DNA from: a virus
Taxonomy: Duplodnaviria; Heunggongvirae; Uroviricota; Caudoviricetes
Length of the DNA: 5,018 nucleotides
Direction: 5' to 3' (one strand)
IMG/VR virus record: IMGVR_UViG_641736116_000018
Shown here: positions 1,857 through 5,018 of the stretch, one piece after another
How the letters are laid out: each line of letters begins with the position of its first letter
Numbering within the stretch: the stretch's first letter is position 1
Notes under the pieces: model-generated
Seen by the model: only the letters and a program-made list of their open reading frames with translations
What the model was told of the DNA's origin: nothing
Database searches by the model: none
Program-made: the position numbers and the translations under genes

Positions 1857-4133
1857 ATGCTCAATCAAGAACTGGAACTCAGTTTAAATATGGCTTTCGC
1901 CAGAGCGCGCGAGCACCGTCATGAGTTTATGACCGTCGAGCACTTGTTACTGGCGCTGCTCAGTAACCCATCTGCCCGGGAGGCGCTGGAAGCGTGTTCT
2001 GTGGATTTGGTTGCGCTCCGTCAGGAACTGGAAGCCTTTATTGAACAAACCACACCCGTTCTGCCTGCCAGTGAAGAGGAGCGCGACACACAGCCGACGC
2101 TGAGTTTTCAGCGTGTACTGCAACGTGCGGTCTTCCATGTCCAGTCCTCCGGTCGCAATGAGGTTACCGGTGCAAACGTTCTGGTCGCTATCTTTAGCGA
2201 ACAGGAGTCGCAGGCGGCATATCTGTTGCGTAAACATGAAGTCAGCCGTCTCGATGTGGTGAACTTTATCTCTCATGGCACGCGTAAAGACGAGCCGACA
2301 CAGTCTTCTGATCCTGGCAGCCAGCCAAACAGCGAAGAACAAGCTGGTGGGGAGGAACGTATGGAGAATTTCACGACGAACCTGAATCAGCTTGCGCGCG
2401 TGGGCGGAATCGACCCACTGATTGGTCGTGAGAAGGAGCTGGAGCGTGCTATTCAGGTTCTCTGCCGTCGCCGTAAAAACAACCCGCTGCTAGTGGGGGA
2501 ATCTGGTGTCGGTAAAACCGCGATTGCAGAAGGTCTTGCCTGGCGAATTGTTCAGGGCGATGTGCCGGAAGTGATGGCTGACTGTACGATTTACTCTCTC
2601 GATATCGGTTCTCTGTTAGCGGGCACAAAATATCGCGGCGACTTTGAAAAACGTTTTAAAGCGTTGCTCAAGCAGCTGGAGCAGGACACTAACAGCATCC
2701 TGTTTATTGATGAGATCCACACCATTATCGGTGCGGGTGCAGCGTCTGGTGGTCAGGTTGATGCGGCTAACCTAATCAAACCGTTGCTCTCCAGCGGTAA
2801 AATTCGCGTAATTGGTTCGACAACCTATCAGGAGTTCAGCAACATTTTCGAGAAAGACCGTGCTCTGGCGCGTCGCTTCCAGAAAATTGATATTACTGAA
2901 CCGTCGATCGAAGAAACTGTTCAAATCATCAATGGCCTGAAACCGAAGTATGAAGCACACCACGACGTGCGTTATACCGCAAAAGCGGTGCGTGCGGCGG
3001 TAGAGCTGGCGGTGAAATACATTAACGATCGTCATCTGCCGGATAAAGCCATTGATGTTATCGACGAAGCGGGCGCTCGCGCACGTCTGATGCCGGTAAG
3101 CAAACGCAAGAAAACCGTTAATGTGGCGGATATTGAGTCCGTGGTGGCCCGTATTGCACGCATTCCAGAGAAGAGTGTTTCTCAGAGTGACCGCGATACC
3201 CTGAAAAACCTCGGCGATCGCCTGAAAATGCTGGTCTTCGGTCAGGATAAAGCCATTGAGGCGCTGACTGAAGCCATTAAGATGGCGCGTGCAGGTTTAG
3301 GTCACGAACATAAACCGGTCGGTTCGTTCCTGTTTGCCGGCCCTACCGGGGTCGGGAAAACAGAGGTGACGGTACAGCTTTCGAAAGCTTTGGGCATTGA
3401 GCTTCTGCGCTTTGATATGTCCGAGTATATGGAACGCCATACCGTCAGCCGTCTTATTGGTGCGCCTCCGGGATACGTTGGTTTTGATCAGGGCGGTTTG
3501 CTGACTGATGCGGTCATCAAGCATCCACATGCGGTGCTGCTGCTGGACGAAATCGAGAAAGCGCACCCGGACGTGTTCAATATTCTGTTGCAGGTGATGG
3601 ACAACGGTACGCTGACCGATAACAACGGACGCAAAGCGGACTTCCGTAACGTGGTACTGGTGATGACCACTAACGCCGGGGTACGGGAAACTGAGCGCAA
3701 ATCCATTGGTCTTATCCACCAGGATAACAGCACCGATGCGATGGAAGAGATCAAGAAGATCTTTACACCGGAATTCCGTAACCGTCTCGACAACATTATC
3801 TGGTTCGATCATCTGTCAACTGACGTGATCCATCAGGTGGTGGATAAATTCATCGTCGAGTTGCAGGTTCAGCTGGATCAGAAAGGTGTTTCTCTGGAAG
3901 TGAGCCAGGAAGCGCGTAACTGGCTGGCCGAGAAAGGTTACGACCGGGCAATGGGCGCACGTCCGATGGCGCGTGTCATCCAGGACAACCTGAAAAAACC
4001 GCTCGCCAACGAACTGCTGTTTGGTTCGCTGGTGGACGGCGGTCAGGTCACCGTCGCGCTGGATAAAGAGAAAAATGAGCTGACTTACGGATTCCAGAGT
4101 GCACAAAAGCACAAGGCGGAAGCAGCGCATTAA
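1857..4133 (+). CDS. clpA: ClpA, ATP-dependent Clp protease ATP-binding (AAA+ unfoldase) subunit, 758 aa
   Basis: ATG at 1857 with GGGGAG Shine-Dalgarno at 1845-1850. N-terminus [24 protein letters not shown]… Two Walker A motifs (GESGVGKT encoded near 2504-2527, GPTGVGKT near 3340-3363). C-terminus …QKHKAEAAH. The track ORF starting at 1842 is an in-frame TTG extension and is not used. Confidence 0.97.
2351..2363 (+). promoter_or_regulatory. clpA: Internal ribosome-binding site and in-frame ATG (codon 169) inside clpA; candidate start of the shorter ClpA65 form
   Basis: GGAGG at 2351-2355 lies 5 nt before the ATG at 2361-2363 (Met169). An internal initiation product of clpA is described for E. 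coli. Confidence 0.5.
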
Positions 4134-4158
4134 TCTGATTGTCAGGTAGGTTGGTGAA

Positions 4159-4195
4159 GTCCGTAATCTCGAAAGAGGTTACGGACTTTTTATTT
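4159..4195 (+). terminator. clpA Rho-independent terminator (about 12-bp stem GTCCGTAATCTC / GAGGTTACGGAC, GAAA loop, T-run)
   Basis: Seen directly, 26 nt downstream of the clpA stop codon. Confidence 0.75.
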
Positions 4196-4347
4196 ATGGG
4201 GTGGAACGGTGAAAACCCTATTTTTGGAGGTGAAGGTAATTTGTTGATAATTAGTGCTGCTGGAAAAGGTAAGGATAAAAAAGGGTGACAGCAGGAAAAT
4301 GAGATGGTTTTGCTTTATTAACAACGGGCTAAACGTGTAGTATTTGA
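4196..4347 (+). promoter_or_regulatory. AT-rich putative CRISPR leader
   Basis: AT-rich segment immediately upstream of the intact repeat. Its position on the side opposite the degenerate terminal repeat fits a leader. Confidence 0.4.
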
Positions 4348-4435
4348 GTTCACTGCCGTACAGGCAGCTTAGAAATTCACTGGTAACATACTCCACCCGC
4401 CCACCATGTTCACTGCCGTACAGGCAGATAAAATG
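4348..4435 (+). CRISPR. Orphan type I-F-style CRISPR mini-array: repeat (4348-4375), 32-nt spacer (4376-4407), degenerate terminal repeat (4408-4435)
   Basis: Repeat 1 GTTCACTGCCGTACAGGCAGCTTAGAAA is the canonical 28-nt I-F (Yersinia-subtype) repeat with the Cas6f hairpin GTTCACTGCCGTACAGGCAG and the CTTAGAAA handle. Repeat 2 keeps the first 20 nt and diverges over the last 8. The spacer is exactly 32 nt, the I-F length. No cas gene in the window. Confidence 0.8.
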
Positions 4436-4437
4436 CG

Positions 4438-4465
4438 AAAAAAAAGCCCGTACTTTCGTACGAGC
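4438..4465 (-). terminator. serW Rho-independent terminator (8-bp stem, GAAA tetraloop, U8 on the minus strand)
   Basis: Minus-strand RNA GCUCGUAC-GAAA-GUACGGGC-UUUUUUUU, 13 nt downstream of the tRNA 3' end. Confidence 0.7.
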
Positions 4466-4478
4466 TCTTCTTTAAATA

Positions 4479-4566
4479 TGGCGGTGAGGGGGGGATTCGA
4501 ACCCCCGATACGTTGCCGTATACACACTTTCCAGGCGTGCTCCTTCAGCCACTCGGACACCTCACC
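4479..4566 (-). tRNA. serW: tRNA-Ser, anticodon GGA, 88 nt with encoded CCA
   Basis: Reverse complement reads GGTGAGGTGTCCGAGTGGCTGAAGGAGCACGCCTGGAAAGTGTGTATACGGCAACGTATCGGGGGTTCGAATCCCCCCCTCACCGCCA: GGA anticodon loop, long variable arm, GGTTCGAATCC T-arm. Confidence 0.95.
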
Positions 4567-4609
4567 AAATTGTTTTGCTGCCAAACCTCATGGGTGGCAA
4601 CGGGGCGCT

Positions 4610-4638
4610 ACTATAGGGAGTTGGAGTAAAACGGTCAA
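4610..4638 (-). promoter_or_regulatory. Candidate sigma-70 promoter for serW: -35 TTGACC (4633-4638), 17-bp spacer, -10 TATAGT (4610-4615), GC-rich discriminator
   Basis: Hexamers read on the minus strand; the GCGCCCC stretch after the -10 resembles the discriminator of stringently controlled stable-RNA promoters. Confidence 0.45.
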
Positions 4639-4750
4639 GAAGAATTTTAATGATAATTATTGTTTGCTCATACTGTAAACAACTTGTGCAGTATATCTAC
4701 ATCGAGACAAGTTATGGACTTATACTTCCAAAGTACTTCATGCATATCAC

Positions 4751-4777
4751 AAAATAAAAAGGCCGGTTAAACCGACC
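4751..4777 (-). terminator. infA Rho-independent terminator (stem AGGTCGG / CCGGCCT with one wobble pair, then UUUUUAUUUU)
   Basis: Hairpin at 4760-4777 followed on the minus strand by a T-run (plus-strand AAAATAAAAA at 4751-4760), about 45 nt downstream of the infA stop. Confidence 0.55.
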
Positions 4778-4819
4778 TTTTACTCGTTCTTTCTCTTCGC
4801 CCATCAGGCGGTAAAACAA

Positions 4820-5018
<199 letters not shown>

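Follow-up and report, generated by a model that had tools for sequence, protein, structure and literature searches.

The 32-nt sequence at 4376–4407 (+ strand) of the window, the whole 5,018-nucleotide stretch of DNA that was analyzed, is probably a genuine type I-F CRISPR spacer taken from an Escherichia cas1f gene. The single-spacer, cas-less array that holds it is likely to be a trap, in which an incoming I-F system would be made to destroy itself. The initial annotation had asked whether the mini-array is a passive relic or functional, and had mentioned, unconfirmed, reports that cas-less I-F-type arrays at this E. coli locus can carry spacers matching I-F cas genes. The idea was borne out, the spacer matching cas1f at 30/32 to 32/32 positions, and the mini-array reads as a cas1f-directed anti-cas array and not as a random relic.

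The spacer reads exactly TTCACTGGTAACATACTCCACCCGCCCACCAT, as first annotated, and lies between two in-register I-F repeats spaced 60 nt apart from start to start. Repeat 1 (4348–4375, + strand; GTTCACTGCCGTACAGGCAGCTTAGAAA) is a canonical type I-F (CRISPR-DR4) repeat and scores 50.1 bits against Rfam RF01317 (gathering threshold 35). Its 28 nt are identical to the repeats of arrays in I-F-positive E. coli, contain the Cas6f hairpin and end in an intact 8-nt 5' handle, CUUAGAAA. The terminal repeat (4408–4435, + strand; GTTCACTGCCGTACAGGCAGATAAAATG) is intact over its first 20 nt, which take in the Cas6f hairpin CTGCCGTACAGGCAG, and degenerate over the final 8 (ATAAAATG), so that it scores 29.7 bits, below the gathering threshold. 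A degenerate 3' end is usual for the terminal repeats of CRISPR arrays.

Cas6f of type I-F systems cleaves at the 3' base of the repeat hairpin. From this known cut site, a mature crRNA of 60 nt is predicted at 4368–4427 (+ strand), consisting of CUUAGAAA, the spacer and GUUCACUGCCGUACAGGCAG; the sequence elements for it are intact, and Cas6f would be needed in trans. The global MFE structure predicted for the pre-crRNA pairs the two repeats together and is uninformative on the individual Cas6f hairpins. With a hairpin-bearing 28-nt repeat, a 32-nt spacer in a 60-nt period and a leader of the cas-linked type, the element has the make-up of a type I-F array. I-F cas genes are absent beside it, serW following directly after the terminal repeat, and it is therefore an orphan array and not a complete CRISPR-Cas locus. 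Its position between clpA and infA, the match to a cognate cas gene and the leader-proximal PAM are those of an anti-cas orphan array.

The spacer target is nt 98–129 of cas1f, antisense strand, covering codons N33–E43 (NGGRVEYVTSE), and the GG of the PAM is the Gly44 codon. The type I-F PAM reads CC on the 5' side of the spacer-sense sequence and, correspondingly, GG on the 3' side in the target strand. The I-F PAM (CC/GG), to which the initial annotation had drawn attention, is present: a 5'-CC precedes the spacer-sense strand on the leader-proximal side in the cas1f genes of E. coli W224N (L001), E. coli CFSAN064035 (L002), a metagenomic Escherichia-like I-F locus (L014) and Escherichia ruysiae (L015). 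Both the 32-nt length and the leader-proximal PAM agree with what is established for the spacers of E. coli I-F arrays (PMC3506596).

All positions agree (32/32), and GCC precedes them, in E. ruysiae cas1f (L015 1598–1629) and in the metagenomic locus (L014 10718–10749). The latter is one contig, which came up when metagenome contigs were scanned by pattern for the protospacer with A at position 4 together with cas1f flanks; it has the order clpA – array – I-F operon – serW – array – infA and is ~88–90% identical to the E. coli locus. The W224N gene matches at 31/32, with the mismatch at spacer position 4 (context ...TTTACC|TTCGCTGGTAACATACTCCACCCGCCCACCAT|TCACC), and the CFSAN064035 gene at 30/32, with a second mismatch at position 11; in both, the protospacer context reads CC|TTCGCTGG.... 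All differences between the protospacer alleles are synonymous (Ser42 AGT vs AGC; Val40 GTT vs GTC). Among the cas1f matches listed by BLAST of E. coli genomes, five are 31/32 and two are 30/32. A Cas1f protein search of species-representative genomes gave 35 loci, in which E. whittamii has one mismatch to the spacer (position 28) and distant genera have 4–12. Three proteins were checked and are Cas1f by NCBIfam TIGR03637, at 543–550 bits.

Chance is excluded as an explanation for this agreement. The probability of at least 31/32 on either strand of the 8.4-kb cas operon is ~9e-14 without requiring the adjacent CC, and the BLAST E-value of the spacer against cas1f is 6e-6 in a search space of 28 Gb. 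For the initial annotation, the absence of a protospacer, or matches confined to the same locus in other strains, would have spoken against the idea; instead, a protospacer was found in cas1f.

The first seven letters of the spacer, TTCACTG, do equal positions 2–8 of the repeat, as had been pointed out along with the suggestion of a recombination scar. Since cas1f adjoins the array in I-F-positive strains, the 32-mer might also be no spacer at all, but a scar or a piece of cas1f left in place between repeat fragments by a deletion, with TTCACTG derived from the repeat. This account is scarcely credible. The cas1f gene of E. ruysiae itself has the 7-mer (...CC|TTCACTGG...; sense-strand codons ACC AGT GAA GG), as does that of the metagenomic locus, and TTCACTG was thus copied from the target and not produced by recombination. 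Furthermore, the spacer runs opposite to native cas1f and derives from nt 98–129, ~270 nt from the array end; as the reverse complement of a stretch that lies ~100 nt into the gene, it cannot have been left behind by a deletion. An in-situ remnant or scar was accordingly rejected on orientation, on length (exactly 32 nt between in-register repeats), on the CC PAM at the correct side of the protospacer and on the E. ruysiae sequence.

Most CRISPR spacers target mobile elements, and the I-F arrays of I-F-positive strains had many plasmid matches (Touchon & Rocha, PMC2886076), which would favor a phage or plasmid as the real target, the likeness to cas1f being incidental. The searches make this highly improbable. 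BLAST of 50,697 phage records gave no match, and the 72,556 plasmids of PLSDB gave only chance-level hits (E at least 3), the sole cas-related one being to a Vitreoscilla cas1f (22/25). A pattern scan of IMG/VR returned two matches, on contigs labelled viral, and these are one cas1f gene and one orphan array. None of this competes with a perfect 32/32 match with a PAM in cas1f. As to other chromosomal self-targets in E. coli, a single chance-level hit of 23 nt (E = 6) appeared among the matches listed.

Over its whole length, the window shares 99.6% identity with E. coli O145:H28, the nearest genomes being O145:H28 and O157:H7, and O157:H7 genomes have its 171-nt array region without any difference (100%). 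The conserved left flank is clpA (1857–4133, + strand), an ORF whose homologous region is annotated clpA in O157:H7 (L004) and in K-12 and which ends 214 nt before the array. An intrinsic terminator (4156–4189, + strand) with a 15-bp stem followed by a T-run parts clpA transcription from the CRISPR leader (4190–4347, + strand). Its homologue in I-F-positive strains is the leader of the clpA-proximal I-F array: window 4134–4347 aligns with that of W224N from clpA to the first repeat, and the repeat-proximal ~70 nt are nearly identical. A scan of 4190–4347 found no consensus sigma-70 promoter, and the case for array expression therefore rests on the literature, in which orphan arrays are described as "constitutively expressed" (PMC8616872).

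Past the terminal repeat lies the serW terminator hairpin (4438–4473, – strand), with a 16-bp stem and a shorter + strand version at 4449–4462; it may act bidirectionally, and the array transcript is likely to end there. The conserved right flank is made up of serW, a tRNA-Ser(GGA) gene (4479–4566, – strand; ARAGORN and Rfam tRNA), and infA (4820–5018, – strand; an ORF, named from the O157:H7 annotation), which is cut off at the window end.

I-F-positive strains have the order clpA – leader – array – cas1f – cas3f – csy1-3 – cas6f – serW – second leader and array – infA. The array of the window thus sits at the site of their cas operon, and close relatives of this strain type lack any cas1f. 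The nearest genomes, O145:H28 and O157:H7, show a single spacer match each, as would be expected of a cas-less state. Comparison of window 4567–4819 with L001 2861–3583 revealed no trace of the second leader and array that I-F-positive strains carry between serW and infA; the gap in the window has only ~110 nt of AT-rich, unrelated sequence (4640–4750).

Two features of the W224N operon were seen alongside. The gap between cas3f and csy1 (L001 7885–7912) contains, in opposite orientation to the cas genes, a repeat-like element with a full Cas6f-type hairpin, GTAAACTGCCGTACAGGCAG. It could serve in Cas6f binding or in regulation, or be a repeat that has degenerated. In addition, csy2 (L001 5359–6282) is annotated as a pseudogene with an internal stop, and the system may thus be inactive in some I-F-positive E. 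coli.

At the other end of the window, positions 1–1500 are the edge of a phage-related island adjoining clpS, with a 93-aa ORF at 376–657. A capsid gene lies upstream of this ORF in O157:H7, and the same side of clpS in W224N has P4/PICI-like genes (small terminase, capsid, primase, Icd-like). The region contains the direct repeats TAACnnGTTGATATT, in three copies (655–669, 913–927 and 957–971), and CGCAAAATTGCG, in two (678–692 and 897–911), which could be recombinase or packaging sites.

The spacer is common in the species. Short-query BLAST of the 32-mer against 5,426 complete E. coli genomes matched 2,579 of them, mostly at the same intergenic array and in a subset inside genes annotated cas1f. 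Near-full-length matches occur in 2,568 genomes; less those with cas1f, this leaves ~2,300 genomes (~43% of 5,426) whose cas-less array holds the anti-cas1 spacer. The array locus itself occurs in 5,414 of the 5,426. A cas1f gene is present in 241, on a plasmid in none; its alleles form two classes, one sharing at least 99% and the other ~96% identity with that of W224N. The exact spacer of the window was found in 546 complete genomes, with the array as the sole match in 13/13 sampled; at most four genomes have two spacer matches. The K-12 variant of the spacer is TTCACAGG (T6A).

Fifteen other cas-less arrays were sampled (L005–L011, L013 and L050–L056). Nine of their ten distinct spacers match cas1f, cas3f or csy3, with four different spacers against cas3f and two variants of one spacer against csy3. 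The corresponding protospacers are mostly CC-flanked; in one case the E. coli allele has TC instead. In DETEC-P836 (L053), the leader-proximal spacer GCACACGTCGAGCTGGTGGGGATTAATGCTGG occurs only in CRISPR arrays, in 211 E. coli genomes, and a search for it in I-F cas genes and plasmids gave no match.

Where these arrays have several spacers, the anti-cas1 spacer is trailer-proximal (7/7: L008, L009, L011, L013, L050, L051 and L052), and the leader-side spacers target cas3f. The trailer-proximal spacer of an array is its oldest, and those on the leader side are newer. An anti-cas1 spacer at the trailer end, joined by newer cas3f spacers, is the pattern expected of primed adaptation. The downstream junction, GGCAG|ATAAAATGCGAAAAAAA, is common to all sampled cas-less arrays. 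From sequence comparison, this suggests one ancient deletion with the anti-cas1 spacer as founder; the later, polarized acquisitions from neighboring cas3f were probably primed and would have followed or accompanied the deletion.

The same data lend themselves to a second account, in which an I-F-positive ancestor took up a self-targeting cas1f spacer, the resulting autoimmunity favored loss of the cas operon together with most of the array, and an inert remainder was left. The leader and position are those of a clpA-proximal I-F array, the one shared downstream junction suggests a single ancient deletion, and spacer acquisition may have caused cas loss (PMC8616872). Signs of decay also exist. 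The terminal repeat of K-12 (L003 1533–1560) has G17A in the stem of the Cas6f hairpin, two arrays (L009 and L011) retain only 28 nt of the anti-cas1 spacer, and a solitary repeat is left in another (L056), which fits a partial relaxation of selection in some lineages. Together with the lack of a predicted promoter and of a plasmid target, this decay leaves the account of a passive relic with some weight.

Nevertheless, a passive relic was considered unlikely as a description of the present array. The spacer is unchanged in 546 genomes and matches a living cas1f allele at 32/32, and most of the other ~1,800 arrays with the spacer show one change only. In crRNAs of types I-E and I-F, the nucleotide at position 6 is flipped out and unpaired. 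The common change, T6A of K-12, sits at precisely this non-pairing position. The hairpin and 5' handle are intact in the window. Spacers are otherwise quickly lost in E. coli, according to Touchon & Rocha (PMC2886076), and experiments with native orphan arrays are reported to have shown interference, as summarized in PMC8616872 and PMC7145637. As an origin story, moreover, the relic account is compatible with a present anti-cas function.

The anti-cas trap is proposed to operate as follows. The leader would drive transcription of the repeat-spacer-repeat unit, giving a transcript that is inert alone. On entry of an I-F operon, its Cas6f would cut the resident transcript to the 60-nt crRNA, which the incoming Csy (Cascade-like) complex would load. 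The complex would then bind the incomer's own cas1f beside the PAM and recruit Cas2/3, leading to degradation of the incoming DNA. Imperfectly matched targets would instead promote priming, by which more anti-cas spacers would be acquired. Loss of the resident cas operon may at first have been caused, or accompanied, by this same spacer.

The spacer matches E. ruysiae-type operons perfectly. Both sampled allele classes of E. coli cas1f have G at spacer position 4, within the I-F seed. Mismatches in the I-F seed weaken direct interference and favor priming. Direct interference against E. coli-type operons should consequently be weaker, and priming likelier. An I-F operon that arrived by homologous replacement between clpA and infA would remove the array as well; since the spacer also has no known plasmid or phage target, the range of realistic invaders is uncertain.

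A more elaborate version was also weighed, in which the O145/O157-type array is the unmutated founder and a trap still under selection, the spacer having come from the I-F system of a non-coli, E. ruysiae-like Escherichia and the synonymous AGT-to-AGC change at position 4 of E. coli cas1f blunting it. If true, circulating E. coli I-F systems would survive partly through AGT to AGC, and orphan arrays and cas operons would be engaged in an arms race. The E. coli cas protospacers showed no enrichment of escape changes beyond the ~10% background divergence between the W224N and metagenomic loci. Without excess change at the protospacers, the arms-race reading is not favored, and it appears distinctly improbable.

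Deletions of genome regions by self-targeting spacers have reportedly been described by Vercoe et al. in 2013, for example with the I-F system of Pectobacterium. That case and the array of the window share a spacer against own or chromosomal DNA and a link to the loss of the targeted region. The target is presumably gone from the genome here, so the spacer, unlike that of Pectobacterium, is not self-targeting now.

Compared with the I-F systems of E. coli LF82, ED1a and UTI89 (CRISPR4.1 – cas1, cas2/3, csy1-3, cas6f – CRISPR4.2), the window has the same repeat, a homologous leader, a spacer of the same length (32 nt) and the same GG/CC PAM. It differs in having no cas genes, one spacer and no array between serW and infA, and in that the spacer targets a gene of the system itself. 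The mini-arrays of phages and mobile elements likewise have a single spacer between a full and a degenerate repeat and depend on Cas proteins in trans (PMC8616872); the array of the window differs from them in being chromosomal, fixed at a core-genome site and aimed at cas genes instead of competitors.

The closest relatives are the anti-cas orphan I-F arrays between clpA and infA, termed CRISPR3 by Touchon & Rocha (2010) and orphan CRISPR4 by Almendros, Guzman, Garcia-Martinez & Mojica (2016). Touchon & Rocha found that all E. coli without I-F (Ypest) cas genes have a short array of I-F type, with spacers matching Cas1, Cas3 and Csy2 of the Ypest subtype, the Cas1-matching spacer being among the two commonest, and proposed an "anti-CRISPR" role (PMC2886076). 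Diez-Villasenor et al. (2010), as cited in PMC8616872 and PMC2886076, held that such spacers caused the loss of cas genes. Almendros et al., as summarized in PMC8616872 and PMC7145637, found native orphan arrays to be expressed and to give interference and priming against plasmids with I-F cas genes. The array of the window has the same locus, repeat, cas-less state, spacer against Cas1 of the I-F (Ypest) subtype and proposed mechanism, with no essential difference from these arrays as they are portrayed in those sources.

The anti-cas1 array is therefore already known, its principle and spacer class having been published in 2010 and tested in 2016. Minor additions are the donor allele of E. 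ruysiae type with an exact match, the synonymous mismatch at seed position 4 in both E. coli classes, the founder (trailer-proximal) position of the spacer and its prevalence of ~43% among 5,426 complete genomes. The array illustrates that CRISPR memory can be used by bacteria to exclude a CRISPR-Cas system.
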